Of a stretch of 64,000 nucleotides of DNA, positions 3,495 through 28,316 are shown in pieces. Position 1 is the first letter of the stretch. Each line of letters starts with the position of its first letter. Source of the DNA: an uncultured Candidatus Bathyarchaeia archaeon (GTDB taxonomy: Archaea; Thermoproteota; Bathyarchaeia; Bathyarchaeales; Bathyarchaeaceae); contig CAZUDX010000004.1 in NCBI GenBank assembly GCA_964618695.1, positions 86,257 through 150,256 on the forward strand, written 5' to 3'. The position numbers and the translations under genes are program-made. Below the pieces are notes generated by a model that worked only from the letters and a program-made list of their open reading frames with translations, was not told the origin of the DNA and did not search any database.

Positions 3495-6400
3495 TTATCT
3501 GAGTACTTTTTGTTTTATGTACTTTCCCCACTGTTTAAGCTTTTTAGATGGGATAATCATTACCGGCACCACAATAATTAGAGTAACCACTGAAATTCGT
3601 ATTCCCAAGTCAGCGTAACTTTGTCCTGTGAAATATATCGTTACGTCGAAATCACCTGTCTTGTTTATGTAGTAACCGTTAACCAAAGAATACATTGGAA
3701 TCGGAGATATCTCTTCACCGTCTACGTAAGCTTTCCACCTTGGGTGGTAGGACTCTGAGAAGATCAAAAGAAACGGTTCATTACTGTTTTCAACGTGAGC
3801 CTTATACTTAGTTGGGTTTATCTTTTCATAGCTAACTTTTGGACCGGGCTTTGCCTCAAACAAATCATCCAAGAAACCGAAATCTCCCTCATCGTTTAGT
3901 GTCATCACCATGTCACTGAAATATGCTTCCCCTGTGGCGCTGATTGTTACGGTTTGTTCGCCAGAGTGAAGATAAAACGGTCCAGCCTCGTAATGTATAA
4001 TTTTGGCATCGGGACTGTTGCAGGAAATATCAATTGTTTCGTCGTTCACCTTCAGGGTTACAGTGCCAAATTGTGGACCAAATGCGAGCCGGAAGTCAGC
4101 CCTGTAAAATCCATCCTCTGGAATCAAAATGCTTCTTGAAACAGTAGGTTCTGCATAAGCTTTGAACTCCCATATGCTTACTAGGTCATATAAAGCTGTA
4201 ACAGAGGTGATGTAAAGTCTCAATTTTGTAGTTTTCACGGGTTCTGAGAACATGTGCACTCGGTCAAGAATGACGTTTCCGGTCACGTTAACTTGGTTAA
4301 CCCAATCAACTCCGTTCCATGTTTGTATTGTGTAGTTTTCTGCGTATGCATCTTCAAAAAGTATGTGTGCTCCGGTAAGTTCCTGCGGGGTTTCCCACTC
4401 AATTTGCAGCCATTGTGGCATCGATTCATGAGGTTTAGAAGCCCACCTCGTTTCCAAGTTTTGGTCGTTGGCTCTATTAGCGTCTAAGCCAATATTATCC
4501 CACACTCCAACCGAACTAGCAGAAATGGTGCCGTTGGGTGAAACGTTCATTCCCAACTCCTCTGCGTGTAGTCCAAAATCGCCTAAATCAACAAGTTGTT
4601 CCCCGTTTTCAAGCGAGTAAATGATCAGTTGGTCAAACTCTATTCTTTCCGAGGCACGTATCTCTATTAGGTGATCGCTGGCATCAAGATAAACAGGTCC
4701 AGCCTCGTACCACTCTGCCTCTGCATTGGAGTTGAGGTGTCGTACAGTGACGTTCGTGTTATTTATCCGCAACTGTGGAATACCTTGGTTTAGACCTTTA
4801 ACCAAGCGAATAGCAAACATGTATTGATCTTCTCGAGGAATTGAGAGCCTAGTTGAAAGCCACGGTATCGTATAAGCTTCGAATTCCCATACGCTTACCA
4901 AACCATATGCTGGAGCAGACGTCACGTAGAGCCGTAACTTCTTTGTTACCACAGATTCTGGGAACATATGCACTCGGTCAATCATAACGTTTCCTGTTAC
5001 GTTAACTTGATTAACCCATTCTTCACCGTTCCATGTCTGTATTGTGTAGTTTTCTGCGTACGCGTCTTCAAAAAGTATGTGTGCTCCGGTAAGTTCCTGC
5101 GGGGTTTCCCACTCAATTTGCAGCCACTGCGGCATCTCATAAGGTGTAGAAGCCCACCTCGTATTTTTGCGCCCGTCATTGGCTCCATCCGCCTCCAAGC
5201 TAATTGTGCCCCACACTCCGACCGAGCTGGCAGAAGCATTGCCTTCTGGCGAGATGTTTGCAGTTGGGCTTATGTTGTGAAAAACATAATCTTCAAAGGA
5301 TATTAAATTGGTATACCAATTTTCAGGAGGATCGAATGTGAAAGTGTTTTCAGCCTCCAAAACATAGATAATTCTGCCTGAGAATCTTTGGAGGGTTTCG
5401 ATTAAATCGTTCATCCTTGATTGGAAGAGGTTTGGTTTTACTATGGCAATGGTATCTATATCGTTGTAGCCTGTGCCGTCGTTTGCTAATGTGATTGTGT
5501 GTTCGCCTTTTTCCAAGTCCAGAGAGTTTATATTTACCCACATTAGCCTCGACCAAAAACGCGATCGTGGTTTAATTTCTCCAATAGGAGTCCCATCTAT
5601 CAGAACGGTTAGGTTTCCTCTGTTATCCACAAACGCAATCCTCAACCAGACGTCATAGTTTCCATTCGAATCAGTTTTGAATGGTATTTTTATGCTGGTA
5701 TTTCCTGAGGTTGTAAGAGTGTCTCCGCCCCACACAAAGCCTCCGACAGACCTCCAAGACGTAGCGGTAACCCAATTTCTAGAATAATTCTGAGATGAAA
5801 CACCATAATTTGCAGCTATTATGAAATTCGCTTCGTCTCTGAGAGATAACATCGTTGCATCCACTAAGTCAGTGTTAACCAAAATCAGCGCGTCTGAGTT
5901 ACTAAACAGGTCGGCGGAAAAGGAAGTTTCATCTGTTTGATGCGCAAAAATCAATCCTGTTTCATTAAGGTTGAATGTGTCGATCTTACATAATGCTGAG
6001 AAACTCTGTAAACCTCCCATGACATAAGCGTATTCGCCGGTCGCAAAAACCCCGGGGGTGTAATATTTGTTTTCAAGAATAATGGAGCTCTGGTTATAGA
6101 CTACGTCATAGCCTTCCTGTTGCAAGAAGAAGTTTCGTGTGTTATTTGACAGATATTCTGGTAAGACAACATATTTGTAATTAAACGGTCCAATCATTTC
6201 TAACATGTTTTCAGTTAACTCTTTGCGTGCCAGACGAAAACGCATGTAGTCAACGTAGTGGCGAGCTGGGGTGCTCCATCCTCCATCTTGAAGAACAGGT
6301 CTACCGTGAAGAAACGAGCTGTCGTAACCTATGTCATGCCCCCAGCCTAAGCTGGTTTTCATACCACTGAAAGCAAAATCAGACTCTTGTATAGACTTGT

Positions 6401-7928
6401 TCTCCCATTCAGAAGGACTATTGGTAGTGGTTATAATTTTGTAATCTCCTGCTTGCTGTGCAATCCAATCATACGGTTCAATGTAGCTTTCAGGAGGAGT
6501 ATAGACCTGTAAGCCTTGACTGAAAAAGTAGAAACAGGATAGAAAACCGCTTAGGAAAACTAAAATCAACAACAGGTAGCTCAGATAATGGAGAAACTTG
6601 TGTAAAATTTTAACGGTTCTATTTATCGAGTGCGCAACCTTTAATGAAATGTAGCTCTCATGCACTCTGATTGTAGGAGTTTCTATTTTTGCCTTCAGGA
6701 ACACTTGTTTTTCTGCATATTTCTTTTTTTGGATATACGTTACTAACATGTCGACTAGAACTGAAACAAAGAATGCGTTAGAGAAAGCGATTATCATAGC
6801 CATTCTGTTTGCAGCCCTGAAAACAGAGAAGTGCGGGATGTTAAACCATGCCCAAGTGAAAATGTCTCCGAAAGGTGGGTGAGGGCCCGTGGCTATGGCC
6901 GTACTGATTATAGCCGCAAAGGCAAAAAACAGGGTGTATCTGTCTCTGCGGATAAAAACTGTGCAGAAAGCAGGTATGAAAACGAGCAATAATAAAATGT
7001 TAAGCGGAACGAAAGGTACGCCAGAACCGCTGTACAAATTGACTGCCGTTGTGTATCCCCAGCTTTCTCCTGCCCGCATAGTGAAGGCATCTATCGTGTT
7101 TTTGTAACTTGATTGCACAGCATCTTCTAACGGGTAAGAATACGTTGCCGAATAATACGGTGCTCTTACATTAAACAGAAAAGGTATGATCCAAAAAGCA
7201 GAAACAAGGGCTAATGTCACGCCCAAAAGTGTTCCTGTCTTCAAAATGTTCATAGGCTTTATGTGGAAATTTTTGAACTTTACTGATTTGATTACAAAAA
7301 AGGCAGTGAATATTGCTAGAAAAATGCCGTAGATGACAATACTTTGTGGGTGAAAACCTGTTGCGAAGACGCCTAAAGCTAAAGCTACAGCTATAATGTT
7401 TTTGAAGCTCTGTTTTTTTAATGCTCTATCCATAAGTAAGAAAAGCAAGGGGGCTAAGGCGTAGCTGAAGATTATGTGGAGATGTCCTTCAGTGAATTGG
7501 GAGAAGATCCATTGATTCAAACAGTAGATTAACGAAGCGGAAAGAGCTGCCATGTGTCGAGAAGTATAATGGTAGGCAAAAGCGTACATTGTGAAGCCAG
7601 CCGTTAAAAACGATGAAAACATTAAAATTTTCACTGTGGCTCCTGCGTCTCTGCATACTGAGTAGATTATCATCATAAAAAAATCCATCGAGTCAATTCC
7701 TTGACTGAATCCAAAAGAAGATGGACGCCACGTGTAGAGCCATTTGAAATCGCTTTCCAATAAATATGCTCTAGATATCCATCCTAGAACATCTCCTCCT
7801 GCTGGCCATTCATTTGTGAAAAGCCATATTCGAAAAATAATAACGGTCATAGCGACAATTACTATAGAACTGATGCAAAGTCGGCGGTGTTTGCTGATGG
7901 CTGCTTTTAGCCATTCGAATATTTTCAT
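3495..7928 (-). CDS. Giant polytopic membrane protein with two F5/8 type C (discoidin) modules; AftD-like GT-C glycosyltransferase candidate
   Basis: 1477 aa. The N-terminal ~400 aa carry many hydrophobic segments. Two modules match the discoidin pattern (RWAS.P...MPQWLQIEWETPQELTGAHILFEDAYAENYTIQTWNG..WVNQVNVTGNV...LRLY.TS...WEF.AY). A C-terminal TM anchor is present (ISVVTLIIVVPVMIIP). Confidence 0.6.
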   Translation of the reverse strand: MKIFEWLKAAISKHRRLCISSIVIVAMTVIIFRIWLFTNEWPAGGDVLGWISRAYLLESDFKWLYTWRPSSFGFSQGIDSMDFFMMIIYSVCRDAGATVKILMFSSFLTAGFTMYAFAYHYTSRHMAALSASLIYCLNQWIFSQFTEGHLHIIFSYALAPLLFLLMDRALKKQSFKNIIAVALALGVFATGFHPQSIVIYGIFLAIFTAFFVIKSVKFKNFHIKPMNILKTGTLLGVTLALVSAFWIIPFLFNVRAPYYSATYSYPLEDAVQSSYKNTIDAFTMRAGESWGYTTAVNLYSGSGVPFVPLNILLLLVFIPAFCTVFIRRDRYTLFFAFAAIISTAIATGPHPPFGDIFTWAWFNIPHFSVFRAANRMAMIIAFSNAFFVSVLVDMLVTYIQKKKYAEKQVFLKAKIETPTIRVHESYISLKVAHSINRTVKILHKFLHYLSYLLLILVFLSGFLSCFYFFSQGLQVYTPPESYIEPYDWIAQQAGDYKIITTTNSPSEWENKSIQESDFAFSGMKTSLGWGHDIGYDSSFLHGRPVLQDGGWSTPARHYVDYMRFRLARKELTENMLEMIGPFNYKYVVLPEYLSNNTRNFFLQQEGYDVVYNQSSIILENKYYTPGVFATGEYAYVMGGLQSFSALCKIDTFNLNETGLIFAHQTDETSFSADLFSNSDALILVNTDLVDATMLSLRDEANFIIAANYGVSSQNYSRNWVTATSWRSVGGFVWGGDTLTTSGNTSIKIPFKTDSNGNYDVWLRIAFVDNRGNLTVLIDGTPIGEIKPRSRFWSRLMWVNINSLDLEKGEHTITLANDGTGYNDIDTIAIVKPNLFQSRMNDLIETLQRFSGRIIYVLEAENTFTFDPPENWYTNLISFEDYVFHNISPTANISPEGNASASSVGVWGTISLEADGANDGRKNTRWASTPYEMPQWLQIEWETPQELTGAHILFEDAYAENYTIQTWNGEEWVNQVNVTGNVMIDRVHMFPESVVTKKLRLYVTSAPAYGLVSVWEFEAYTIPWLSTRLSIPREDQYMFAIRLVKGLNQGIPQLRINNTNVTVRHLNSNAEAEWYEAGPVYLDASDHLIEIRASERIEFDQLIIYSLENGEQLVDLGDFGLHAEELGMNVSPNGTISASSVGVWDNIGLDANRANDQNLETRWASKPHESMPQWLQIEWETPQELTGAHILFEDAYAENYTIQTWNGVDWVNQVNVTGNVILDRVHMFSEPVKTTKLRLYITSVTALYDLVSIWEFKAYAEPTVSRSILIPEDGFYRADFRLAFGPQFGTVTLKVNDETIDISCNSPDAKIIHYEAGPFYLHSGEQTVTISATGEAYFSDMVMTLNDEGDFGFLDDLFEAKPGPKVSYEKINPTKYKAHVENSNEPFLLIFSESYHPRWKAYVDGEEISPIPMYSLVNGYYINKTGDFDVTIYFTGQSYADLGIRISVVTLIIVVPVMIIPSKKLKQWGKYIKQKVLR
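4250..4455. repeat. Intragenic repeat copy A (discoidin module core), near-identical to 4966-5172
   Basis: By-eye alignment. About 130 nt (ccgttccatgt.tgtattgtgtagttttctgcgta....tcttcaaaaagtatgtgtgctccggtaagttcctgcggggtttcccactcaatttgcagcca.tg.ggcatc) differ at only a few positions. The flanks are more diverged. Offset is about 716-719 nt. Confidence 0.85.
4966..5172. repeat. Intragenic repeat copy B (discoidin module core)
   Basis: See copy A. The + strand shadow ORFs 4254-4487 and 4968-5306 translate to nearly the same peptide, confirming the repeat. Confidence 0.85.
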
Positions 7929-8242
7929 TAAATCAGCTCTTCCTAAATCGGATAATCATAACTATGGAAACTTAAATAATCTTCGTAGAGATGCAATTGA
8001 AACTGAATTTGTGTCTGGAACTTGTCAGTTATATGGGCTGATGTTAATCAAAAGTGAAGATGTAAAAATGATAAGGTTTTACTGCAGTTACTGTGAAAGA
8101 GCGAGTGTTTTGTTTGATTTTTTTGTTGATCTTCTTTTTTAGCCTTTGAAGCGAAACGTTTTTCATATATTGATTTTGGGCGGATGTTTTTGGTTTGCTG
8201 TGTTTTAATGGGCAGAGTTCTCTGCAGTTTGTGCAGGTGTAA

Positions 8243-9274
8243 TTATACAATCGAGTCTAACATGTCAATGAACTTTTTCGGGTTTGTTGATCGTAAAATG
8301 AAGAATTTGTTTGCGCTGGCAGTTAGGTTTGAGATTATTTGCTGCTGTTTAGTTAACAGTTTTTCTAGGTTTACTTCTGGGTTGAAGTATGAGTAGCCTA
8401 GCATTATCGGATCAGTCCACAGTGGGAACTCGTGGGTTTTTGATATTGTGAGTTTGTTGTATGCGTTTTGGCTGTTTATTTCTTCTGTGCTTTCTTGATT
8501 GCGTTCCAAAAAGATGACGGTTTCCAGTTTAGTTTTCTGGATTACGCTTGGGTTTTCTATTGTCTTGTACAAGTCGGTGTATTGTGTGATTGGTTCGTTT
8601 ACGTGAAATTTTATTACTGGGGAGATTAGTTTGAGCATCGATTTTACGTAATCTTTTTGGTTGAGGGGTTTTCTTTTTATGCGATCAAAGATTGGGTGGG
8701 GGTCAGGATAGCAGTAGGCGTATCCTTTGTTGTCGACGATTGTTATGTCGTCTGATAGATATGAGAAACCGTATTCTTTTTTCAGGCTTTGAAGTGTTGT
8801 TAAAGTTTTGCCTGTGTTGGGAAACGCGCAAATTAGGATGCCGTTTCCTTTTTTAGATAAGCAGGCACCGTGCATGAAAGTGTATCCTTTGTTCAGCAGT
8901 TTGATGTCCATGATGAAGGGAATTGTTTCCCAGAGTGGGGTTATTCCGCCTATTTTTAGGTGCATTTTCAGGTAAGAGCTGGTTGCTGTGATTTTTGTTT
9001 CTTCGAGCAGGTTTTTTATCAGCATTTTTAGTTTGAAAAATGCTAAGGTTTTGTCGTAGTAGATCCATTTTCCGTTTGGTGTGCCGCAGATGTGTGGTAT
9101 GATTCTGATGGCTTCGTCAACGTTCACTTCGAAATCTTTCTCTACGTTTACGGTTATGTCTGGTTTTGTTTTTTCGACTGAAAAATATCTAAGTCGGCGG
9201 TCTACTAGTGATAGGTCAATGTTCGACTTGATTTTAATTAGTCCGTGAACGTTGTAGTTGAAGTCTGCCATCAC
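8243..9274 (-). CDS. HPr-kinase-like P-loop protein (HprK C-terminal domain-like), function unknown
   Basis: 343 aa. HGACLSKKGNGILICAFPNTGKTLTTL fits the HprK-type pattern H-G-x(n)-G-x-G-(I/V)-L-I-x-G-x-x-G-x-GK(S/T). The rest has no recognisable motif. Composition is K/N/T/I-rich. Confidence 0.4.
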   Translation of the reverse strand: MMADFNYNVHGLIKIKSNIDLSLVDRRLRYFSVEKTKPDITVNVEKDFEVNVDEAIRIIPHICGTPNGKWIYYDKTLAFFKLKMLIKNLLEETKITATSSYLKMHLKIGGITPLWETIPFIMDIKLLNKGYTFMHGACLSKKGNGILICAFPNTGKTLTTLQSLKKEYGFSYLSDDITIVDNKGYAYCYPDPHPIFDRIKRKPLNQKDYVKSMLKLISPVIKFHVNEPITQYTDLYKTIENPSVIQKTKLETVIFLERNQESTEEINSQNAYNKLTISKTHEFPLWTDPIMLGYSYFNPEVNLEKLLTKQQQIISNLTASANKFFILRSTNPKKFIDMLDSIV

Positions 9275-9753
9275 GGGTCGCTCTTTTGGTCTTACGATGC
9301 ACTTTACCCTAAACTTGTTAATATCATTGCTGTCTGTCTTTTGAGTTGTGTTACTGGGTGATCAAATTGAAGGGGTATTGGGGGCGCGGTTTTTCTATGT
9401 GAGTGTTTTGGGTGCGTGTTTAGCTTGGTTTGATGTTGTTTTGTTGTGGCGTGTTTGTCCGTTTTAGGTGTATTTGTGTAGTGTCGGTTAACGTTTTTTT
9501 TGTTGGTGCTTTGGTCTTAGGTTAATGTTTTTGTTTGAAATAGATGGGTGTGAACTTTGATTAGGTAATGTGTGGTGTGTGGGATTGTTGTTTTTTTTGG
9601 TGGTTTATCTCTGTTTGCGTGTATTATGTGTGGAAAAGCGTCTAAGAAGTAGTATGAATCTGGAATTAAAATACAGAAGATGACTGTATACAGCGTAAAC
9701 TTTTTAAGCATATTCCCTTCAACCTTAAGAAGGCGAAAAAACTTTAAAAGAAG

Positions 9754-12700
9754 ATGAGTAAGAAAATGAATCGAAAAAAGCTAATGATAATATTGGCGAC
9801 TACGACAATTTTGGCAATGCTGATATTTCCTATGATGGTTTCACAATTTGCAATCGCTGCAGTTTATGATCCAAATAATATGGTTGTACCCGGTGTGCTA
9901 TCAAGTGACACCTATACGCTTTATCCATATCAACTAAGCGATCTGACGATCGGTTTCTCCAAGTATGGAGAGTTGATAAATGGTGATGCGAAGGTTGGCT
10001 TGAAGTACCAGGGTATAGATGCGTTCGCTAACCCAGGTGTGCTTGAGAAGGACTGGAGTCAAGGTTGGTTCATTGACATTCACTATGTTGATCTTGCGAA
10101 CACTTACAAGCGTGCATGGGCTTTTGCGTTGTACACTGACTTGTCCGGGTCACAAGGTATTGGTGGACCTTGGCTAGAGGGATGTGTAAACGGGCCTATG
10201 GGAACACCTTATGGTGGACGCAAGACGAACGTGTGGGCTACCACAGATCCTATTGAGGTTCTGTATGATGGTCCTCGACGTTTTGTTGCTTTGTGTAACA
10301 CTACTATCTATGATAATGCGGACAAGACAGTTGATGATGCGTTGGTTAGCGTAGCTATCACGATCATATTCAACAAGGTCAAGAAACATGTGACACTGTA
10401 CAAGGATGTTAAGAGGTTGGATCGAGGAAAGTTCGGTAGAACGTTCCAGGTTGAATTCAGCAACCGTGGAGAATGGGATATTGGCACCTCATCGGCGCCA
10501 CCCGCCTATGGACACTTCTTCGACAATCTTCCTACAGTGTACAGTGGTGCATACCATGAGTTCTATGATTACTATGATCCTCTCGGATTTGATGTTGCAC
10601 AGATGTATGATACAGCCTATACTACTGTTGGGTTCGCGGCTTTCTGGCCTCCACTGTATGGGAAGCTGATGGACGGAACCACTCATATTACTAGGGATAC
10701 GATTCTGAGTTCGCTGTGTACAAAGGAACGAAATCAAACGTGGCTTGCTCTCGGCTCCCCATCTGAGAGGATTATAGACTGGAGCTCTTTGGGTTGGCCA
10801 TCTGCTGATCCTTATCCAATAGGGTTAGGAGAGTTTGATGATGAGCCAATGGTGTTCAAGAACAACTACTTGCTAGTTGGCGACGGTGTAGACTATATGT
10901 GGTACGGCGGTGGGTCTGACTACCTAGTGTTCACTGTTGAGCCACAAGACACTGACTACATCACACTTGTGTGGAAGCACATGGAGAATCCTGGAACAGA
11001 AGACCTGTGGCCTATTGAACCTGATACTCCATACGTTATCGGCGAGTGGGTTTTCGACCTAGAAAACGAAGATCACAAGAGAATGTTCAGGTGTGTAACC
11101 CTTTACGGATTAACAGACTTGAACGACGGAATGGACAACAATGACCCCTTTGCGGGCATCGACATGATAGACAGTGAAATCATGTATTATCTAGACGAAT
11201 GCTTCAACCCATACGACCTCAACGATGCAGTTCACAAACAGACAGCGAGACGCGTCGAATTCTTCGACGGAAACGGAGCCGAATGGACATACATCCTAAC
11301 CGATGGAGTTCGTTTCGGTTATGGAACGCCCACTGGCTACGAAGTAGATCAGATAGAGACAGCAGATGAATTCCCCTCTAGCTATTGGGGTTCATACTGG
11401 TTCCAAAACTGGCAAGACGAATATGCAGATATTGCACAAATCTACTACAGTCCTCTACAAAACCATACTCCTGACAAACATTGGTCTGTTAGAATGGTGT
11501 TAGACGCTGATGCAACCGATGAACGATGTTCAGTTAGAATAGTTCCCGAACAGAAAGTTTCCTTGGCTACAGCATTTTATAACGGAATAAGCTTCTATTC
11601 CTACGTAGATGCTCAGACTGGCGGTTCACCATACGATCTTCCCCAAATGAGATTCTATCTTGATACAGATCAAGACGGCCTTTGGGATGAAATACTGATA
11701 TGGGGACCCACAACCACAACTCTGGACGCTTGGGTTCTGAGCACTTTAGGCCTTACAACTCAAGTGGCTAGAATGGGTGACAGTCTACAAGACTTCGAAA
11801 ATTTCATTGACGGCGCAAACACAGACGGTACAAGAATAGACGCTAATAACACAATCCTATTCGTTGACTTGTTGATTGGAGGCTGGTCCGGTGTTAACGG
11901 TTCCGTGGTTTACGTCGACGATGTCAAGCTCGATGGTGTAACTTGGAACTTCGAAAACGGAAGACTTTCTCCAGAATCTTGGGATGACTACTGCACCTTT
12001 GCAGAAAGAGTCCTAGTATTAGGAGATACTCCAAGAGCACTTCAAGTACCAGCGAGATCATGGCAATTCGGCAGTGACTACACAATGGTTTGGAGTGGAA
12101 CACAAACAGACAGCTTCGTTGGCGACGGAGTCACTAGGACATTTGCCCTCTCTTTTGAAGGCATAATGGCAAACACTGAGATAGTATACAACGGAGAAGG
12201 CGCTGGCTTGTTGGCGGTACAGGAACAAGGCGTCGACTATACCATAAACTATGGTACAGGCGTAGTGACCTTTACTGTTGCACCACCAGCTCAGTCTCTC
12301 GTCCGTGTATTCTACCAATACTACCCGCGCGTCGTATTCAATGTTGAAGACATTCCACCGGTAGGCACCGACAACGTCAAAATCCTCTACTCAACAGTAG
12401 AGTATGAAAACTACAAACCAATGGGCAAATACGAGTGGATAACAGTTGGCAAGAATGCGGCAACTGTAGACTCTCTAGGTGCAGCATACATGACCGAAGC
12501 CTTCGACTCAAAGAAAGACATTGAAGTTGTCGCTGCAGCCTTGGACATAAGAGACCCAATATATGGAACTAATGTCCCATACGTAATGGCTGGAGCCACA
12601 ACAGGCACAAGGACAGACTACTACTTCGACTACCCGCAAGACAACAGATCAGGCCTACATGACGACTGGTGCACAACGATCCCAGTAGCAAGCAGCAACA

Positions 12701-13173
12701 TGCTCTTCACTGGAGGTCCACGTGCTAACCTAGGAACATTCTACTTCGACGAATGGTACATGGCAATGTATGCAGAAAATGAGTACGTTGTCAGTAACTC
12801 ATTTGGACAAAAAGACAAAATACTGGCGCTATCCTGCTGGGACAAGAACACTTACGCTAGCTACACTGACCCAATCTACGGAAGAAGCGGATTCGGAACA
12901 GTGTCCGTATACAAGGACCTCAACGGTACAATAGGCTTCTCAATATGGGGCATTGACGGACAGGACACCTACTTCCTAACCGATTGGTTCTGGGAGTATG
13001 GAATCCACTGGCTACAAGGCATAAACGACGGAGTCACCGACATAATCTTTGAAATCTGGTACCCAAGTTTCGATCCAATACACCCAATACTCTTCTATTG
13101 GGAATTACTAGGCACAATCAGCGAGAAACCACAACACGACTGCCCAATAACTGCAATACAACTTGGTCCTTAA
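9754..13173 (+). CDS. Large secreted surface protein, S-layer (glyco)protein candidate
   Basis: 1139 aa. Basic n-region plus hydrophobic signal (KKMNRKKLMIILATTTILAMLIFPMMVSQFAIA/AVYD). No further TM and no enzymatic motifs. Many N-x-S/T sequons, C-ending codon preference, and a T-tract follows. Confidence 0.5.
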   Translation: MSKKMNRKKLMIILATTTILAMLIFPMMVSQFAIAAVYDPNNMVVPGVLSSDTYTLYPYQLSDLTIGFSKYGELINGDAKVGLKYQGIDAFANPGVLEKDWSQGWFIDIHYVDLANTYKRAWAFALYTDLSGSQGIGGPWLEGCVNGPMGTPYGGRKTNVWATTDPIEVLYDGPRRFVALCNTTIYDNADKTVDDALVSVAITIIFNKVKKHVTLYKDVKRLDRGKFGRTFQVEFSNRGEWDIGTSSAPPAYGHFFDNLPTVYSGAYHEFYDYYDPLGFDVAQMYDTAYTTVGFAAFWPPLYGKLMDGTTHITRDTILSSLCTKERNQTWLALGSPSERIIDWSSLGWPSADPYPIGLGEFDDEPMVFKNNYLLVGDGVDYMWYGGGSDYLVFTVEPQDTDYITLVWKHMENPGTEDLWPIEPDTPYVIGEWVFDLENEDHKRMFRCVTLYGLTDLNDGMDNNDPFAGIDMIDSEIMYYLDECFNPYDLNDAVHKQTARRVEFFDGNGAEWTYILTDGVRFGYGTPTGYEVDQIETADEFPSSYWGSYWFQNWQDEYADIAQIYYSPLQNHTPDKHWSVRMVLDADATDERCSVRIVPEQKVSLATAFYNGISFYSYVDAQTGGSPYDLPQMRFYLDTDQDGLWDEILIWGPTTTTLDAWVLSTLGLTTQVARMGDSLQDFENFIDGANTDGTRIDANNTILFVDLLIGGWSGVNGSVVYVDDVKLDGVTWNFENGRLSPESWDDYCTFAERVLVLGDTPRALQVPARSWQFGSDYTMVWSGTQTDSFVGDGVTRTFALSFEGIMANTEIVYNGEGAGLLAVQEQGVDYTINYGTGVVTFTVAPPAQSLVRVFYQYYPRVVFNVEDIPPVGTDNVKILYSTVEYENYKPMGKYEWITVGKNAATVDSLGAAYMTEAFDSKKDIEVVAAALDIRDPIYGTNVPYVMAGATTGTRTDYYFDYPQDNRSGLHDDWCTTIPVASSNMLFTGGPRANLGTFYFDEWYMAMYAENEYVVSNSFGQKDKILALSCWDKNTYASYTDPIYGRSGFGTVSVYKDLNGTIGFSIWGIDGQDTYFLTDWFWEYGIHWLQGINDGVTDIIFEIWYPSFDPIHPILFYWELLGTISEKPQHDCPITAIQLGP

Positions 13174-13175
13174 AA

Positions 13176-13220
13176 GCCGACTAACAAGTCGCTAACCCCC
13201 CTTTCCTTTTTTTTATTTTA
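13176..13220 (+). terminator. Short hairpin plus C-run and oligo-T tract after the S-layer-like gene
   Basis: cgact-aaca-agtcg stem-loop, then cccccc and tttcctttttttttatttt. Archaeal termination typically uses oligo-T. Confidence 0.45.
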
Positions 13221-13424
13221 ATAATAGAGTCTATATTCTAAACAAGTTACATCACATAACCAAGCTTTAGTGTACAGCATGCACCAGCCCACTCTGACCA
13301 TTCAAAATACAAAAATCAAAACCAAACAGCACTGCAAATGTAAGCTTGGTAAAAGTTATCAGAAAGGAACGAACACATCCTTTCTAAGCCTAAGCTCTCC
13401 ACAAACAAAAAGGTAGTTCACCCA

Positions 13425-14579
13425 ATGACTAACATACTAGTCCCCTCAGCATCCCACCTACTCACAGACCACCTCCTATCCAGCGAAGGAATCACATGCT
13501 ACAACCTCTTCCAAAAACTACAAAAACACAACTACCACTTCGAAGCAATCTCAGACCGAATCCACATAAAAAAACCCCTAACCAACACCACATTTCACCA
13601 AACAAACACCACCGAAACAACACCAACCACCAACCCCATCAACAAATACTACAACCACATAGAATTCCTGATCAACAGCTACCGAAAATCCCTACAAATC
13701 CTACAGAAACAAAAAATCGACATAATACACCACATGCTACCCGCAATACACAACCAAACCTTCAACCTCCTACCAATCCTCAAAAAACCAAAACAACCAT
13801 TCATCTTCGGTCCAATATCCGCCCACATATACCCAAGACCCATAGACGAAAAAATGCTATCAAAACTAACAACCAACCTCCACAAAAAAACAATAAAAAA
13901 ATGCGACAGACTAATAACAATCACAAACCAAGTGAAAACACTCTACCAAAAAAACTTCGACCCAGAAAAAATATGGACAATACCCCTAGGTGTAGACACA
14001 GAACAATTCAAACCCCCAAAAAAACAAACACCCAAAAAAAATATTGAAATACTATTCGCAGGCTACCTCTACAAACTAAAAGGCGTAGAATACCTAATAA
14101 AAGCCCTACACACAATAACAAAAAAACGCCAAGACATAAAACTTAGAATCGTTGGAGAAGGCTCCGACAAACCACGCCTCATAAAACTAACTGAAACCCT
14201 AAAAATACAAGACAAAGTAATCTTCGAAGGCTTAGTCCCACACACGAAAATGCCAAAATACTACCAACAATGCGACATCTTTTGTTTCCCAACCCTCGGA
14301 GAACCTTTCGGAAAAGCCATAATAGAAGCCATGGCATGCGCAAAACCAGTCATCGCATCCAACATCGGCGGACCAGCCGAAATAATTCAACACCAAAAAA
14401 CAGGACTACTAGTCCCACCAGCCCAACCCAAAATCCTCGCCACAAAAATCCTAGAACTACTAAGCAACGAAACAGAACTAAAAAAAATGGGAGCAAACGC
14501 AAGAAAAACTGCCATAGAAAAATATTCATGGGAAAAAATAAGCGAAAAGTACCATAGCCTCTACCAAACTCTCAACTAA
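13425..14579 (+). CDS. Glycosyltransferase family 4
   Basis: 384 aa. Motifs: GVDTEQF, ILFAGYLYKLKGVEYLIKAL, EPFGKAIIEAMACAKPVIASNIGGPAEIIQHQKTGLLVPP. The coding strand is almost G-free. Confidence 0.8.
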   Translation: MTNILVPSASHLLTDHLLSSEGITCYNLFQKLQKHNYHFEAISDRIHIKKPLTNTTFHQTNTTETTPTTNPINKYYNHIEFLINSYRKSLQILQKQKIDIIHHMLPAIHNQTFNLLPILKKPKQPFIFGPISAHIYPRPIDEKMLSKLTTNLHKKTIKKCDRLITITNQVKTLYQKNFDPEKIWTIPLGVDTEQFKPPKKQTPKKNIEILFAGYLYKLKGVEYLIKALHTITKKRQDIKLRIVGEGSDKPRLIKLTETLKIQDKVIFEGLVPHTKMPKYYQQCDIFCFPTLGEPFGKAIIEAMACAKPVIASNIGGPAEIIQHQKTGLLVPPAQPKILATKILELLSNETELKKMGANARKTAIEKYSWEKISEKYHSLYQTLN

Positions 14580-14588
14580 ACCCTTTCT

Positions 14589-16073
14589 TTACCCTTTCAC
14601 AACCCCAATCGGAACCAACCGAACAACACGAGTCGCTATCCCAACCTTATCGCTCACATCCACCACCATATCCACATTCTTATACGCTGGATCAGCCTCC
14701 TCAGCTAAAACAACTGAACTAGCAGCTCTAACAACAATCCCCCTACCTTCCAAACCCTTCTTCACGTCTCCACCCCAAAACCTCCTCTTCGCAGCTGTCC
14801 TACTCAACACCCGACCAGCCCCATGAGCCGTAGAACCAAAAGAAACCTCCATAGCCTTAACCGTCCCCACCAACAACCAAGAACTCGTACCCATGCTCCC
14901 AGGAATAATAACCGGCTGCCCAACAGACCGATAATCAGCTGGAACATCCCGATGCCCAGGCGGAAAACAACGCGTCGCCCCTTTCCTATGAGTCCAAACT
15001 TTGGTCCGTTTTCCATCCACCACATGCTCTTCCTTCTTAGCAATGTTATGTGCAACATCGTAGACCAAATCCAACCCAAAATCTTCAGATGGCCTCTTGA
15101 AAACTTCCTCGAAACTCTGGCGAACCCAATGAGTAATAACTTGACGATTAACAAAAGCGTAGTTGACAGCACAAGCCATAGCCTGATAATAATCTTGAGC
15201 CTCATCACTTGTAGCGGGTGCACATGCAAGCTCTCGATCAGGCAACGAAATATTATATTTATGAACAGCCCGCTCCATGACACGCAGATAATCCGAGCAA
15301 GTCTGATGCCCGAACCCGCGTGAACCACAATGAATTAAAACAGTAACCTGTCCTTCATGAGTTACGCCGAAAGTTTTAGCCACTTGCCGATCGAAAATCT
15401 TGTCAACCTTCCCTATTTCCAAAAAATGGTTTCCTGAACCAAGAGTACCACTTTGAGGAAGACCCCGTTCCTTGGCTCTAGATGAAACCTTATCAGGGTT
15501 GGCGCCCTCCATCTGCCCCCCTTCCTCACAATGCTTTGCATCTTCAGGACGCCCTAACCCCTTCTTCACCGCCCATGGTATACCCTCAACAATTAATTGC
15601 TCAAGCTCATGTATATTCAAACGGAAATCTTTGCGGCGGCTACCCAGTCCGCTGGGAACATTCCTAAATATGGTTGTGGTTAAGGTTGCAAGGTAAGGTC
15701 GAATATCACTCTCCGAAAGGTTAGTGGTTAAAAGACGGACACCACAGTTGATGTCGTAGCCCACTCCCCCTGGACTAATTACACCATCTTCATAGTCCGT
15801 GGCTGCAACCCCGCCTATAGGAAAACCGTATCCTTCATGACCGTCAGGCAATGTAACCGCATACTTGTAAATTCCGGGTAAATGCGCAACATTAGCACAT
15901 TGGTCGAGGGTTCGATCAGTTCTTATCTTTTCTATGAGCCGCTCGTCGGCAAAGACCATGCCAGGAACGCGCATACCGGACTTGTAACTTGTGGGTATGC
16001 GCCAGCTATAATCATCAATCTTCTCGAGGGGAACAGGTGGTACCCGCCCTCGGAATTTTCTTTGCCTACTCAT
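14589..16073 (-). CDS. rtcB: RNA-splicing ligase RtcB
   Basis: 494 aa with RtcB hallmarks: GYDINCGVR, GSGNHFLE, HCGSRGFGHQ, PGSMGTSSWLLVG, STAHGAGR, AYKNVDMVVDV. Contiguous, no intein. Confidence 0.95.
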   Translation of the reverse strand: MSRQRKFRGRVPPVPLEKIDDYSWRIPTSYKSGMRVPGMVFADERLIEKIRTDRTLDQCANVAHLPGIYKYAVTLPDGHEGYGFPIGGVAATDYEDGVISPGGVGYDINCGVRLLTTNLSESDIRPYLATLTTTIFRNVPSGLGSRRKDFRLNIHELEQLIVEGIPWAVKKGLGRPEDAKHCEEGGQMEGANPDKVSSRAKERGLPQSGTLGSGNHFLEIGKVDKIFDRQVAKTFGVTHEGQVTVLIHCGSRGFGHQTCSDYLRVMERAVHKYNISLPDRELACAPATSDEAQDYYQAMACAVNYAFVNRQVITHWVRQSFEEVFKRPSEDFGLDLVYDVAHNIAKKEEHVVDGKRTKVWTHRKGATRCFPPGHRDVPADYRSVGQPVIIPGSMGTSSWLLVGTVKAMEVSFGSTAHGAGRVLSRTAAKRRFWGGDVKKGLEGRGIVVRAASSVVLAEEADPAYKNVDMVVDVSDKVGIATRVVRLVPIGVVKG

Positions 16074-16178
16074 AAAACCACCTTTAACTAAAGAGTTGCA
16101 GTGGGGAACTTATAAATTATGAGTGGCACATCACATGAAACGATAGATGCTATTCTCCTGCGCATGCATAAAACAATC

Positions 16179-17303
16179 TCAAATATGTGCTGACACTAGA
16201 GTTTTCTCTTTATTTCGGTCTGTTTTGAAGTCGTCTAACCAACCGGCTTTTGCATTTATTTTTCGCTTGAAGATTTTGCCCAATTTTTTTCTGTTTTTGG
16301 CTTGATGGTATTTGAAGTAAACTTCATCGTCAACAATGCCCACGATCTCGATTTTTCCTGTTTTGTGGGACATAATGTATCTGAAACGTTTACTGAGACC
16401 ATTGCATCTTGCTTTCGTTTTCTCTATGATATTGATTCCTTCACATATTGGAACTTGAAACTGCTTTTTAACTCTCTTGACAGGCCTGCATTGAAAAACG
16501 TAGTAAGGATTAACACCTATGCCCACGAGTTTGTTCATTAATTCTGCAAGTGTTTCAGCGCGGTCGTTTATTCCTTTCAGTAGAATTGTTTGGTTATTGA
16601 CTATTACCCCTGATTTAATCAGGTTGTCTACAGCCTCGGTTGACTGTTTAGTTATCTCTTTTGGATGATTGAATTGTGTAACAACCAATAGCCTTCTCTC
16701 TGGAGTAGAATTTTTAGCCATTAATTCTAGCAACTCATTATCTCGGAATCTTGAAGGAAATGTGACTGGAGTCCTGCTGCCAAACCTAACGAAGTCAAGG
16801 TGAGAAACATCAGATAACATTGATAAGAATCGTTCAATAACCTCGTTAGGAAGCACAAGCGGGTCACCCCCCGAAATCAAAACATTGTTAATCTCTTTAT
16901 GGTGCCTTATGTAACGCACTGGGGCTTCAAAATCCTGAATTACCTCGCTAGTTTCTCGTTGTCCAACGAGTCGCTTTCTAAAGCAATGCCTACAATACAT
17001 TGCACATCTGTTTGTGGCAAGTATTAGTGCAGTTTCAGAGTATTTGTGTTGAAGTCCCCGCAGTTTTGTGTTTTCCACTTCGCCACTAGTATCATAAGAA
17101 CCTTGAAGGTTCAATTCGTCTAATGATGGAATAGCCATTTTTCTTATCGGATCAGTGGGATCGCTCCAATCAATAAGCGACATGTAGTAAGAAGTTACTT
17201 TCATGGGGTGTCTTGCAGTGACCAGTTTAAGTTTTTTCCTTTCTTCATGTGATATATCAACATACTTGCTTAATTGTTCAATTGAACAGATTGTCCCGTT
17301 CAT
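16179..17303 (-). CDS. KamA-family radical SAM protein (lysine 2,3-aminomutase-like)
   Basis: 374 aa. CAMYCRHCFRK (CxxxCxxC) preceded by TNR, plus SGGDPLVL. The layout is typical of KamA/EpmB-type aminomutases. Confidence 0.75.
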   Translation of the reverse strand: MNGTICSIEQLSKYVDISHEERKKLKLVTARHPMKVTSYYMSLIDWSDPTDPIRKMAIPSLDELNLQGSYDTSGEVENTKLRGLQHKYSETALILATNRCAMYCRHCFRKRLVGQRETSEVIQDFEAPVRYIRHHKEINNVLISGGDPLVLPNEVIERFLSMLSDVSHLDFVRFGSRTPVTFPSRFRDNELLELMAKNSTPERRLLVVTQFNHPKEITKQSTEAVDNLIKSGVIVNNQTILLKGINDRAETLAELMNKLVGIGVNPYYVFQCRPVKRVKKQFQVPICEGINIIEKTKARCNGLSKRFRYIMSHKTGKIEIVGIVDDEVYFKYHQAKNRKKLGKIFKRKINAKAGWLDDFKTDRNKEKTLVSAHI

Positions 17304-17816
17304 TTACTTTTCATCTCCTTCTAAATCTTTAGTAAATCGATCAGTTACTGTGTTGGCTTTTGCTTGTAGAATCAGCCAGGAAGTTCGACCAATATCATAA
17401 ATAAAGACAAAGATTGCTCCAACAGCAATAATTGTCATAGCTGCTACCACTCGGGTTCCGATGTTGAATGAAATTTTTAGAAGAGGAATTATTGCAGCAA
17501 ATGCCAAGATTATGAGTATGATTGCTACCAAATCTTTTGTCACTCTATCTCTTGACCGCTGTTCTTGTATGCCCAAACGCGTAACAAAAAGACCTATTGC
17601 TTGGTCGGCTATGACCAAAACAGTGGATAATGCTCGTATCAGAAAAACTCCGGCAACAATTACAAAAACCAGCCAAGATAAGTAACCCAGTCCCGTAATT
17701 AGAGTGTCCAATAGTAGCGAAGAAAATAAGGCTAATGCCCCAAAAACCAAAGCTAGGGCTGTGTTAGCTAATAAACTGGGAAGCTCATCCCTGAATTCTT
17801 TACGGAGAGAGTTCAC
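17304..17816 (-). CDS. Integral membrane protein (about 4-5 TM), abuts the kamA-like gene
   Basis: 170 aa, strongly hydrophobic. Its stop directly abuts the start of the KamA-like CDS (17303/17304). Confidence 0.55.
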   Translation of the reverse strand: MNSLRKEFRDELPSLLANTALALVFGALALFSSLLLDTLITGLGYLSWLVFVIVAGVFLIRALSTVLVIADQAIGLFVTRLGIQEQRSRDRVTKDLVAIILIILAFAAIIPLLKISFNIGTRVVAAMTIIAVGAIFVFIYDIGRTSWLILQAKANTVTDRFTKDLEGDEK

Positions 17817-18315
17817 ACTTATCCAATCCTAAACTCGATCTCTTTCCATAAGTGTCGAATTCAGATATACACAGGTTACAAAGTAAGAGCATACATACTG
17901 TGTCAACGACAACTGGAAACGAGTTCTGTCTTCATATTCTTGCGAGACTTTATAAACCTTTAAAATCTGTCAAGGACTGGAAACAGTTAGTTCATGTCTA
18001 TTCCTCTAAATTTTGTCCATTATGTAGACTTGCACTCCGAACCAATTCACTAGCATCATCGTTTTTAGACTGAAATTTATTATTTATGCTATTTTTAACT
18101 GAATAAAGGTATTAAATCGTAAGGAAGACTTATAAAATATGCTGAGAATATTACATTTGGAAAAAGGTGAGCAAAAGGATCACTATGACTTTCTTTTGGA
18201 GTGCTTACCTTTTCATGAGGGATGAACGGTGATTTGGATAAGAAGAGTTACTGGAGAGGATGTTAGATCTGCACAAAAGTGGTTGTCGAAAGATCCACCC
18301 TTCAACCTGTAGAGA

Positions 18316-18570
18316 ATGAAAACAAGATTCCTGAGTGAGGGGTCCGTCAACAAGTTTAGACTATGGAGGGAAACATATACGGGAAAAGTAAGACCTGATC
18401 ATATCAAGAAGCTAGCTCGGGAATTGGTTGAGCGATTCCCTGATAGATTCACAACAGACTTTGAGAACAACAAAAAAATGGTGGATGCTCTTACCAATGT
18501 TTCGTCAACAAAAATTAGAAACCGAGTAGCAGGATATGCTGTTCACTTGACAGCCCAAAAAGGACATTAG
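18316..18570 (+). CDS. rps17e: 30S ribosomal protein eS17 (S17e)
   Basis: GKVRPDHIKKLARELVERFPDRFTTDFENNKKMVDALTNVSSTKIRNRVAGY matches the eS17 family. The conserved N-terminus starts at codon 22 (ACG at 18379), so the start is uncertain. Confidence 0.85.
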   Translation: MKTRFLSEGSVNKFRLWRETYTGKVRPDHIKKLARELVERFPDRFTTDFENNKKMVDALTNVSSTKIRNRVAGYAVHLTAQKGH

Positions 18571-18603
18571 CGTCTTTAATCAAAGCCATTTCTTTTTGGA
18601 GGT

Positions 18604-18837
18604 GTGAATGTAAATTTGGAAAACCTGAGTAAAATAGAAAGAGAAACTTTAGATTTCATAAAAGAAGCGGGGGAAATTCAGACCAGAAACTTACCCAATA
18701 GTAGGATGTACGGAGCAATCCCCAGCCTGAAGAACAAAGGATTAGTTGAAGTTTATAAGAAATACACCAGCATTTTTCGACGAAAGAAAAAGAAGTTCGT
18801 GAAATTAAGAAAAAACAAAAATTCTCTTGAAGATTAA
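18604..18837 (+). CDS. Small winged-helix-like DNA-binding protein with basic tail
   Basis: 77 aa, GTG start. ETLDFIKEAGEIQTRNL...LKNKGLVEV resembles wHTH, followed by an RRKKKKFVKLRK tail. Confidence 0.4.
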   Translation: MNVNLENLSKIERETLDFIKEAGEIQTRNLPNSRMYGAIPSLKNKGLVEVYKKYTSIFRRKKKKFVKLRKNKNSLED

Positions 18838-18980
18838 TGGTTTCAAGAAAGAATGCACGTTACTACTGATAACTGTTGCATAATAGTTTATGTTTCAAGA
18901 CTTTGTAGCCTCTGTATTAAAACCACAATCTTTAAGAACCGCTTCTATTCATTGAGCATGGTAAATCGGATGTAGATGAA

Positions 18981-19484
18981 ATGTCAGTTGAAGAACCATC
19001 TGAAAGTGAAGAATTGGTGAAGGTAGAAACGTTGACTCCGAATTCGAGAGGCGTCAACACTATTGTGAAGGTAGTTTCGAAAGGTGAAGTCAGGAGCGTC
19101 ACGGGAAGAGATTATTCTGTTCGCCGAGTTGCAGATGCCTTGGTGGGAGACGAAACAGCGTGCGTATACATGACTCTTTGGGATGACAAAATAGATGCGA
19201 TAAACGAAGAATCCACCTTGCGTATCACTAATGGTTACGTAAATCTCTTCAGAGGAAACATGCGCTTAAACATAGGAAAATACGGCAGCTATGAAGTAGT
19301 GGAAGATTCGCCTATCACTGAAGTCAACACTGAAAATAATTTGTCCGACAAACGGTACGAGCAAGAGAGACGATTCCGCAGACCATATGGTGGCGGAAGA
19401 AGCGGCGGATACGGTGGAAGAGGCGGCGGAAGAAGCGGCGGATACGGCAGCGGAAGAAGAGACTACCAGCGAAGAAGATACTAA
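18981..19484 (+). CDS. ssb: Single-stranded DNA-binding protein, single OB fold with RGG-rich tail
   Basis: 167 aa. OB-fold core (VNTIVKVVSKGEVRSV...GDETACVYMTLWDDKI...LRITNGYVNLFRGNMRLNIGKYG) plus tail GGGRSGGYGGRGGGRSGGYGSGRRDYQRRRY, as in crenarchaeal-type SSB. Confidence 0.75.
   Translation: MSVEEPSESEELVKVETLTPNSRGVNTIVKVVSKGEVRSVTGRDYSVRRVADALVGDETACVYMTLWDDKIDAINEESTLRITNGYVNLFRGNMRLNIGKYGSYEVVEDSPITEVNTENNLSDKRYEQERRFRRPYGGGRSGGYGGRGGGRSGGYGSGRRDYQRRRY
19392..19447 (+). repeat. 33-nt period tandem repeat encoding the RGG tail of SSB
   Basis: ggcggaagaagcggcggatacgg occurs at 19392-19414 and again at 19425-19447. Confidence 0.8.
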
Positions 19485-20605: not shown

Positions 20606-20745
20606 TAAAATCGCTTCTTTTATTACGTAGCGTAGAATTCACTCGAAACAATTTATTGTTTACGCCAAAAAAGGCTTTAAGTTAGCCCAGTCTTCTTTAT
20701 GAAACGAGCAAATGTGATGTTAGTTTAGTTAAAACTTGGTTCCGA

Positions 20746-21786: not shown

Positions 21787-21963
21787 CACTACATATTTCC
21801 CAATTTTAATCTCGGTTTGGATGATTTTTCGGAAAAAAAGCTGTTTTCAACAATCTGCTGTTATTAGTCTCCTAATATGAACTAAAGGAGGCACTCAGTT
21901 TCTATACGAGAAATGTGAAAACCTTTAAAGAAGCAACGTTTAGATGAGGTAAAGGCGAGACTG

Positions 21964-26391: not shown

Positions 26392-26450
26392 TTTGAGTCA
26401 CGTCTGTCATCAAGAGTCGGAAGATAAAGTTTCTCAATGGAGAATATGTA

Positions 26451-26669
26451 CTATCTTTTCACAATGCTCAGGATTTCCCTTACTGGATTGGGATATGCTT
26501 CAGCAAGTTCCCTTGCGACTTGGGGAGGAACTCCTTGAAGTACCAATGTTTTTTTGAATGTTGATTTTGCCCTTCGCCTTTTCACAATAGCCTGTGTGAT
26601 CAAACCCAAAGATTCAACGCATAGTCTGGAAAAATAGAGGACACCAGTGATAAGGGCTTTTACACCCAT
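26451..26669 (-). CDS. Small hypothetical protein (72 aa)
   Basis: ORF only. Lies between another small ORF and the ABC ATPase on the same strand. Confidence 0.3.
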   Translation of the reverse strand: MGVKALITGVLYFSRLCVESLGLITQAIVKRRRAKSTFKKTLVLQGVPPQVARELAEAYPNPVREILSIVKR

Positions 26670-26672
26670 GGC

Positions 26673-26957: not shown

Positions 26958-27032
26958 TATTCTTCACCTCAAGTATAGTATACACTGGATAACATGTTTA
27001 GGTCTATTGGACAATTCTGACCAGTGAAGTGG

Positions 27033-27503: not shown

Positions 27504-27552
27504 TATTTTATTGTGTTTTTACATAAGTTCATGTGGGTGGTGAGAGAATTCT

Positions 27553-28020: not shown

Positions 28021-28057
28021 TTTTGTAATGGTTATATGCGGAGTTTTCTAGTGACTG

Positions 28058-28261: not shown

Positions 28262-28316
28262 CCATTTGATTACGCACTAAAAAAGAGTGAAAGTTTTCCA
28301 CAGCCAGTGTTAGCGG

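Follow-up and report, generated by a model that had tools for sequence, protein, structure and literature searches.

The window considered here is the whole stretch of 64 kilobases (kb) that was analyzed from a contig of an uncultured Bathyarchaeia archaeon, and its left part holds a surface and glycosylation gene cluster next to rtcB, the core gene for the tRNA-splicing ligase. Reading from left to right, one finds the gene for a giant F5/8-type-C membrane protein, a gene for a P-loop protein (hereafter the P-loop gene), the gene for a large secreted protein (the surface gene), an intact gene for a GT4 glycosyltransferase (GT4) and, convergent with GT4, rtcB itself. The surface gene is flanked on either side by a patch of 1.5-2.5 kb in which the two DNA strands differ greatly in composition, one being rich in G and T and the other in A and C. 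These two patches, their relatives elsewhere, and the process that may have made them are the subject of this account; coordinates are collected in Table 1.

The central protein deserves a word of caution, as the label "S-layer" given to it in a first, sequence-only reading of this DNA is unverified, and the protein has no match in Pfam or NCBIfam. For comparison we took the best 80 loci around rtcB, nearly all of them from Bathyarchaeia. Residues 1-500 of the surface protein are 60-85% identical to those encoded at locus L010 and 44-56% to those at L001, residues 500-900 align with no relative, and residues 900-1100 are nearer to L001; the flanking genes are 82-94% identical. From the alignments, this mosaicism suggests that alleles may be shuffled by recombination. 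Because the gene is both hypervariable and mosaic, it is a plausible recombination hot spot.

Strand composition can be expressed as the keto skew k, that is, (G+T-A-C)/length, which we computed in windows of 300 nucleotides (nt) along the 64 kb; its mean is 0 and its standard deviation 0.15. On the + strand, k runs from +0.30 to +0.56 over 8001-9700, peaking at 9301-9600, and from -0.38 to -0.64 over 13301-15000, where the strongest value falls at 13501-13800. In the comparison set (1.36 megabases, 13,613 windows of 300 nt), |k| reaches at least 0.35 in 0.67% of windows and at least 0.55 in only 0.015%, and the largest skew in a second reference of 144 kb of unrelated loci is 0.31. The skew is therefore as extreme as it had first appeared.

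The two patches do not end in the same way. Both edges of the left patch are sharp, the outer one near 8000-8100 and the inner one near 9600, and the final ~100 nt before the surface gene, which presumably hold its promoter, are unskewed. The right patch fades outward through rtcB. The sequence-only reading had let it run past the convergent gene junction to about 15300; the crossing of the junction is correct, but zero is reached only near 15750 when the skew is followed at neutral sites, by which we mean 4-fold degenerate and intergenic positions. At such sites the core of the right patch shows a + strand k of -0.66 to -0.95. The neutral-site skew also runs on into the surface gene, where it is about +0.3 to +0.4 in the 5' part, declines roughly linearly through zero near 10900 and arrives at about -0.4 to -0.5 in the 3' part, before falling to -0.8 to -0.95 over GT4 and the 3' end of rtcB.

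The imbalance shows in single-base counts as well. The 60 nt at 9421-9480 hold A5 C4 G19 T32; there is one G at 13561-13620, with four in the preceding 60 nt (13501-13560) and three in the following 60 (13621-13680), and G numbers 4-7 per 60 nt over 14641-14880. These counts agree exactly with those reported earlier, whereas the figure of 85% G+T for 9300-9650 holds for the core at 9421-9480 (and nearly so for 9401-9600) and comes down to 76% over the full tract. Runs of five or more T number 20 on the + strand and 3 on the - strand of the left patch, against 0 and 22, respectively, in the right one. Sense transcripts of the P-loop gene and of GT4 would thus be without runs resembling intrinsic terminators, and past the GT4 stop codon no such run occurs until well within antisense rtcB; antisense transcripts in both patches would meet an oligo-T run about every 75 nt.

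Researchers annotating such DNA should also be aware of stop-free shadow open reading frames (ORFs) of 95-183 amino acids, which lie across GT4 and rtcB in alternative frames and on the opposite strand (13496-14047, 14270-14557, 14804-15328, and 14823-15323). These are by-products of composition and could mislead gene callers.

Table 1. Genes and skewed patches of the window (k, keto skew)
Feature	Position	Strand	Remarks
Giant F5/8-type-C membrane protein	3495-7928	-	
Left patch	8100-9650		+ strand G+T-rich; k +0.22 to +0.70 per 100 nt, +0.35 to +0.72 at neutral sites
P-loop gene	8243-9274	-	343 amino acids; weak match to HprK-related kinase A; sense strand A+C-rich
Intergenic tract	9275-9753		Between the divergent P-loop and surface genes; core 9401-9600 ~84% G+T on + strand
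Surface gene	9754-13173	+	Large secreted surface protein, 1139 amino acids; N-terminal signal-like segment
Right patch, core	13250-14950		- strand G+T-rich; + strand k -0.32 to -0.66 per 100 nt
GT4 glycosyltransferase	13425-14579	+	Intact; Glycos_transf_1, E 3.5e-48
rtcB, tRNA-splicing ligase	14589-16073	-	Core gene, convergent with GT4; E 3e-172
Second strong patch	20000-21786		+ strand G+T-rich; covers a divergent GT2 glycosyltransferase gene pair
Weaker patch pair	56033-60514		hisA, hisF, and hisIE (3' end of the his operon) + strand G+T-rich, +0.32 to +0.48
Genes for PLP (pyridoxal phosphate)-dependent enzyme and polyprenyl synthetase	58377-60514		A+C-rich; 4-fold skew -0.20 to -0.46

The pressure that shaped the patches ignores coding sense and gene borders. 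In GT4 the 4-fold sites read A85 C57 G3 T9, and the skew weakens from -0.84 there to -0.38 (codon position 1) and -0.24 (position 2); in the P-loop gene the bias noticed earlier amounts to -0.50 to -0.52 at 4-fold sites of the sense strand. The skew is greater at 4-fold and intergenic sites than at codon position 1, and greater at position 1 than at position 2, an order that is a hallmark of mutation pressure. Along rtcB, the 4-fold skew of the gene's own sense strand climbs by quarters from 5' to 3' (0.00, +0.29, +0.45, and +0.86), so that the right patch truly spans the convergent junction. The skew is graded with position in rtcB and across the surface gene, a gradient that might reflect time spent single-stranded, as in mitochondrial DNA (mtDNA).

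It had been proposed that the skew is not one gene's codon usage, and this holds good: it is maximal at 4-fold sites, includes the non-coding DNA of 9275-9650 and crosses convergent and divergent junctions alike. Codon usage and translational selection were rejected as causes, as neighboring genes have opposite signs and non-coding DNA is affected. Amino-acid composition was likewise rejected as the cause of the rtcB skew, for the gradient is one of 4-fold sites and most relatives lack it. The proteins have been reshaped, as had been claimed; in the N-terminal half of GT4, the residues K, T, N, P, Q, and H make up a fraction of 0.47, versus 0.33-0.36 in orthologues with low skew.

Among the relatives, L001 and L010 have the gene order from the GT2 genes to the F5/8-type-C gene in common with the window, possess a GT4 orthologue, and show skew of the same sign over GT4 and the 3' end of rtcB. 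Because these loci were assembled separately and have intact orthologous ORFs with same-sign skew, the patches are, on this comparison, not assembly artifacts. The 4-fold skew of GT4 is -0.84 in the window, -0.71 in L001, -0.50 in L010, -0.34 in L083, -0.17 in L081, -0.12 in L082, and +0.20 in L105; the last four come from metagenomes, have different genes around them and show mild skew or none. At 28 of 384 GT4 positions the window has a base found in none of the others. An exact-protein look-up of GT4 gave no match.

The other genes tell the same story. Three orthologues of the P-loop gene, sharing 72%, 68%, and 59% of amino acids with it, are unskewed at 4-fold sites (-0.06, -0.09, and -0.22, respectively), and in their loci the surface gene is not adjacent. 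The notion that the P-loop gene is a hypermutated form of the methyltransferase gene found at the same position in L001 and L010 was dropped, as the two have no similarity; it is a different gene with orthologues of its own. The last quarter of rtcB is skewed where GT4 adjoins (+0.86, +0.56, and +0.71) and lies at about 0 to +0.2 in most other relatives, L002 (+0.47) being an exception. For the GT2 genes, the values are +0.64 in the window, +0.72 in L001 and +0.38 in L010 (counterpart patches at L001 5164-7357 and L010 4365-6588), versus +0.05 to +0.19 in six sister species that lack the patch and keep the same gene order. Skew strength follows adjacency to the central surface gene. Judged from this distribution, the skew is derived in the window clade, and it has been gained in some lineages and lost in others, the sister species L010 being in the course of reverting.

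The direction of change can be read from polarized substitutions, in which M stands for A or C and K for G or T. On the window branch of rtcB, changes M>K versus K>M on the sense strand number 23:3 in quarter 2 (16 of the 23 being C>T), while quarter 3 has 13:2 and the already saturated quarter 4 has 5:4. Polarizing against relatives thus points to a process that acts in place and is still active; by these counts, the window lineage shows the pressure still spreading into rtcB, and in one sister species (L010, see the GT4 counts below) it is being undone. Clade-wide changes, for which six unanimous outgroups were required, run 25:5 with versus against the skew in GT2 and 13:0 in the 3' half of rtcB. 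A first parsimony run on GT4, in which the ancestor was already skewed, was dropped; directional pressure is expected to give parallel changes, and such a run is therefore unreliable. Strict counts limited to sites where all six other sequences agree, together with the unskewed outgroup L105, give ratios with versus against the skew of 16:3 for the window (towards A and C on the sense strand) and 9:1 for L001, compared with 0:12 for L010, 2:13 for L082, and 8:39 for L083.

The side branches that lose skew are what one would expect if the genes had come from an extremely strand-asymmetric replicon (a virus, say, or a rolling-circle plasmid) and were slowly reverting to host composition, and the genes do lie within a variable glycosylation and surface island absent from sister species. 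Yet the core gene rtcB gains skew at synonymous sites, and mainly where GT4 adjoins; its protein is 94% identical to the RtcB of one Bathyarchaeia metagenome-assembled genome, and amino-acid identity to relatives (94%) shows no drop at the 3' end. The window and L001 branches are still gaining skew, loci elsewhere (L015, below) bear patches on housekeeping genes, and no viral relatives of GT4 or the P-loop gene and no terminal repeats were found. Foreign origin, or mosaic acquisition as it was first called, is thereby weakened to the point of being very improbable. A mobile element was rejected for the want of terminal or inverted repeats and of viral relatives of these two genes.

How fast the two directions run was estimated by two-state relaxation at 4-fold sites between the window and L001. 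The control genes give 0.27 and 0.31 for the two directions, whereas the rates against and with the skew are 0.26 and 1.96 in GT4, 0.29 and 1.76 in quarter 4 of rtcB, and 0.26 and 1.57 in GT2; these values presume a stationary process and draw on 50-130 sites per gene, GT2 being the cleanest case and quarter 4 of rtcB clearly non-stationary. The favored direction is thus about 6x background and the disfavored one runs at the background rate. Because the latter is not suppressed, added mutational input fits better than a fixation bias.

These rates bear directly on selection, or another fixation bias, acting on strand composition, by which A+C-rich transcripts would be preferred for being unfolded and free of starts, stops, and oligo-T terminators, with an antisense strand full of terminators. 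The two strongest patches do have A+C-rich sense strands, with 0 and 3 sense-strand T runs of at least five against 22 and 20 in antisense, and transitions and transversions are equally biased, as if base class and not mutational pathway mattered. Against this, changes opposed to the skew proceed at the background rate, and the near-stationary GT2 shows 26 differences where about 15 would be expected under fixation bias (a hand calculation). About half of the patches, moreover, have the opposite sense (the GT2 genes, hisA and hisF, the 3' half of rtcB, and 36370-37530 have G+T-rich sense strands), the skew enters rtcB on its antisense side, and it changes within one operon. We consider selection improbable.

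One strand has lost A as well as C, as first proposed; polarized changes there number 84 A>G, 72 C>T, 23 A>T, and 14 C>G. In single-stranded DNA, A and C are specifically vulnerable, through deamination and alkylation. Pure deamination, the explanation offered earlier, is not supported, for the transversions A>T and C>G rise in proportion with the transitions; when 4-fold sites that switch between {A,C} and {G,T} are counted, transitions to transversions stand at 176:56 in the patches and 190:68 in the controls. A TpC context is absent as well, the C>T rate being lowest after a 5' T (0.068, versus 0.156 after A). One class of damage with suitable products is N3-methyl-C and N1-methyl-A, which form mainly in single-stranded DNA and whose bypass yields both transitions and transversions (PMC8610418).

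The same spectrum can be read in favor of strand-specific error-prone DNA synthesis, whether in repair, in recombination-dependent synthesis or by a low-fidelity polymerase, in which G.T misinsertions would leave the newly made strand rich in G and T. About equal numbers of A>G (84) and C>T (72) on the G+T-rich strand are what nascent-strand G.T mispairs would give, whereas spontaneous deamination is far slower for adenine than for cytosine; transitions and transversions keep their background ratio, and there is no context motif. Such synthesis must, however, converge on the central gene, and the fill-in that follows resection would have the opposite polarity. We hold it to be unlikely, though worth keeping in mind, as sequence alone cannot separate single-strand damage from error-prone synthesis via G.T mispairs.

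The patches around the surface gene are not the only ones. Weaker patches of both signs lie in the same window at 20000-21786, 27000-28500, 35800-37750, 56033-58249, and 58377-60514; patches measure 1-2.5 kb, and most of the 64 kb is near 0 with no skew domain on the scale of a replichore. The skew spans the divergent pairs 19559(-)/20746(+) and 27033(-)/27553(+) as well as the convergent GT4(+)/rtcB(-). Within the his operon (hisS-like/hisG/D/C/B/H/A/F/IE, within 49058-60514), it is slightly negative and then +0.3 to +0.5 in the last three genes. Two distant Bathyarchaeia loci, L015 and L016, whose RtcB proteins are 76-77% identical to that of the window, bear a strong + then - patch pair directly downstream of rtcB (L015 1200-6900 and L016 11200-15900), covering genes for RDD, CofE, MBL-fold (metallo-beta-lactamase-fold), TYW1, translin, and endonuclease V proteins. 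Because these are housekeeping genes, the patches are not confined to accessory genes, and they seem to be a wider trait of Bathyarchaeia.

With this larger sample, one can ask whether sign follows transcription. Transcription damage would strip C and A from the non-template strand of R-loops, with read-through from rtcB over GT4 on one side and an upstream transcript toward the surface gene on the other. A G-rich non-template strand favors R-loops, so the effect could even be self-reinforcing, and the G+T-rich strand is indeed the sense strand in rtcB, the GT2 genes, and hisA and hisF. It is the template strand, however, in GT4, the P-loop gene, 58377-60514, and several L015 genes, whose sense strands are A+C-rich, and the rtcB skew is zero at the 5' end and maximal at the 3' end. 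Archaeal RNA polymerase terminates at oligo-T runs, and antisense transcripts would meet one roughly every 75 nt; since the G+T-rich strands are full of runs of five or more T (20 and 22 in the two main patches), long antisense transcripts are unlikely. The R-loop proposal made earlier is thus weakened, and we now regard it as quite improbable.

A dedicated DNA deaminase, or programmed hypermutation aimed at surface and glycosylation genes, would account for the position of the strongest patches in the surface and glycosylation cluster beside a hypervariable gene. There is no TpC or other strong context, though, and transversions are included; housekeeping genes are also hit (his genes and rtcB here; CofE, TYW1, and EndoV in L015), neither a deaminase nor a reverse-transcriptase domain matched in the 57 window ORFs scanned with Pfam, and a search for template repeats gave none. 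The motif-specific deaminase suggested at first is accordingly weakened, and we judge this whole class of explanation highly unlikely.

We therefore come to strand-specific mutation, recent-looking and lineage-specific, acting in place, which we think stands an about even chance of having made the patches. On the affected strand, which would be the + strand on the left flank and the - strand on the right, A and C would be replaced by G or T at several times the rate found elsewhere, with the reverse changes keeping their ordinary rate, so that unconstrained sites would come to be ~90% G/T. Codon positions 1 and 2 would follow more slowly, and the GT4 and P-loop proteins would be recoded as a consequence. 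The affected strand might be repeatedly single-stranded and open to A/C-specific deamination and other damage or, alternatively, repeatedly resynthesized with errors.

As to where such exposure might come from, the 3' end of the affected strand points to the central gene on both sides. This is the polarity that 5'->3' resection from breaks in that gene would have, and lagging-strand templates of forks converging on or stalling at it would have the same. That breaks in the surface gene, or forks converging on or stalling at it, are the trigger is a tentative proposal that we rather doubt. A broader version, namely that certain fixed sites on Bathyarchaeia chromosomes are zones of chronic exposure or resynthesis of one strand, for instance where breaks recur or forks are arrested around a hypervariable surface-protein gene, and that these leave heritable, near-saturated tracts resembling kataegis that come and go between sister species, is possible and seems to us a little less doubtful. 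A replication origin was rejected, there being no orc1/cdc6 among the 57 window ORFs scanned with Pfam and the sign switch lying inside a coding gene.

Several points weigh against strand-specific mutation and its proposed trigger and should be kept in view. The 4-fold divergence in the patches (~31%) barely exceeds that of the controls (~29%), and the rate estimates carry the stationarity assumption and small site numbers given above, which quarter 4 of rtcB does not suit. Equal transition/transversion ratios in patches and controls are not what simple hydrolytic deamination would give; broad damage or amplified background mutation is needed. The skew is weakest, not strongest, in the middle of the surface gene, where a single central break predicts otherwise. 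The mirror-image layout noticed at first is real at this locus, and the + then - polarity recurs in L015 and L016, but it is no general rule: across all loci, the junctions at which the sign switches have the + patch first in 5 cases and the reverse order in 4, which is not significant, so the layout could be coincidence. By eye, no shared motif was seen at the sign switches at 21787-21963, 58250-58377, and L015 3400-3800.

To our knowledge, the loss of nearly all A and C from one strand, in the degree seen here, is otherwise confined to animal mitochondria. In vertebrate mtDNA, the heavy strand is G+T-rich, damage occurs while it is single-stranded in replication, and A and C are likewise lost from one strand. 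The patches resemble it in that the effect is maximal at 4-fold sites, is graded by position, and alters protein composition, and the magnitude is comparable, G+T making up just 8% of the GT4 4-fold sites in the patch. Unlike vertebrate mtDNA, each patch occupies 1.5-2.5 kb of a cellular chromosome with unskewed surroundings, switches on and off between sister species, and has transversions in normal proportion. For the patches, strand-displacement replication is not known to occur.

Kataegis offers a second comparison. These strand-coordinated mutation clusters arise at resected double-strand breaks or in break-induced replication in yeast and cancer (PMC6786661, PMC3521656), and they share with the patches the kilobase tracts, the mutated bases of one strand, the strand switch over a central point, and, at this locus, a polarity such as 5'->3' resection would give. 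The substrate is single-stranded DNA in kataegis and would presumably be so in the patches. Kataegis, however, consists of single somatic events with tens of mutations, usually of C in TpC, whereas the patches represent an evolutionary steady state at ~90% saturation; they lose A as well as C, have no motif, and involve breaks only by conjecture.

The replication-linked GC and TA skew of bacteria and archaea (PMC3269012, PMC12999951) also gives a G+T excess on the strand presumed to be single-stranded for longer, and the change from + to - patch resembles its terminus. Here, though, the scale is kilobases where that skew extends over hundreds of them, its amplitude is exceeded several-fold, and there is no domain-wide skew in the 64-kb window. 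Transcription-associated asymmetry, with its G+T excess on the non-template strand, involves the same base classes over a gene-scale extent, but in the patches the sign is not bound to sense, and the two strongest are reversed. Diversity-generating retroelements are adenine-specific, whereas C is hit as much as A in the patches; no repeat pair was found in 7800-16200, and no reverse-transcriptase domain in the scanned ORFs. Acquired DNA would decay in all lineages, unlike a skew that enters the core gene rtcB and is still rising on the window and L001 branches. The literature we searched includes genome-scale skew analyses of archaea, but no description of kilobase-scale, near-saturated, changeable patches in archaea. 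The patches may belong with the strand asymmetries that result from damage to or resynthesis of one strand, in a kilobase form that appears new.

If local strand-specific hypermutation is the true explanation, mutation rate and spectrum vary ~six-fold over a few kb, and between sister species, in an uncultured slow-growing archaeon, and such variation suffices to recode proteins. It would further predict that new mutations in metagenomic populations have an asymmetric spectrum confined to the patches. There are practical consequences for phylogenetics, where convergent composition misled simple parsimony; for gene calling, which is affected by the stop-free shadow frames; and for the detection of horizontal transfer, since the patches mimic foreign DNA. 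Composition of this kind also gives a handle, needing nothing but sequence, on strand exposure in organisms that are beyond cultivation. Should the exposed-zone explanation be true, the patches would naturally record, in readable form, the polarity with which archaeal DNA recombines or replicates, and they would act as a local mutator that speeds the evolution of surface-glycosylation proteins.

A few smaller observations concern the surroundings. The KamA-like radical SAM gene (16179-17303), the gene at 17304-17816, and the island of GT4, surface-protein, and F5/8-type-C genes stand beside rtcB in the window, L001, and L010 and in no other locus. Among the sister species, rtcB directly adjoins a gene for a protein like the single-stranded-DNA-binding protein (window 13174-17816 compared with L002-L011). 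A short gene for a single-OB-fold single-stranded-DNA-binding protein (18981-19484) is kept beside rtcB in the majority of the closest relatives, namely L001-L004, L006-L008, L010, L011, and L013. Because GT4 is differently placed in L081, L083, and L105, the surface and glycosylation island has been rearranged.

A search of the window with Rfam returned only two tRNAs, at 31.4-31.65 kb, and no structured RNA in the non-coding tract. The two form a divergent pair at 31400-31652, tRNA-Val-GAC (-) and tRNA-Ala-GGC (+), and a mechanically called ORF at 31493-31882 that overlaps tRNA-Ala is probably spurious. Stretches of 0.6-1.6 kb with no ORF of at least 110 amino acids and no Rfam match lie at 17817-18980, 26392-27032, 28021-28750, 60515-62100, and 62647-64000. 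Lastly, 63201-63600 is moderately A+C-rich, with k of about -0.35.

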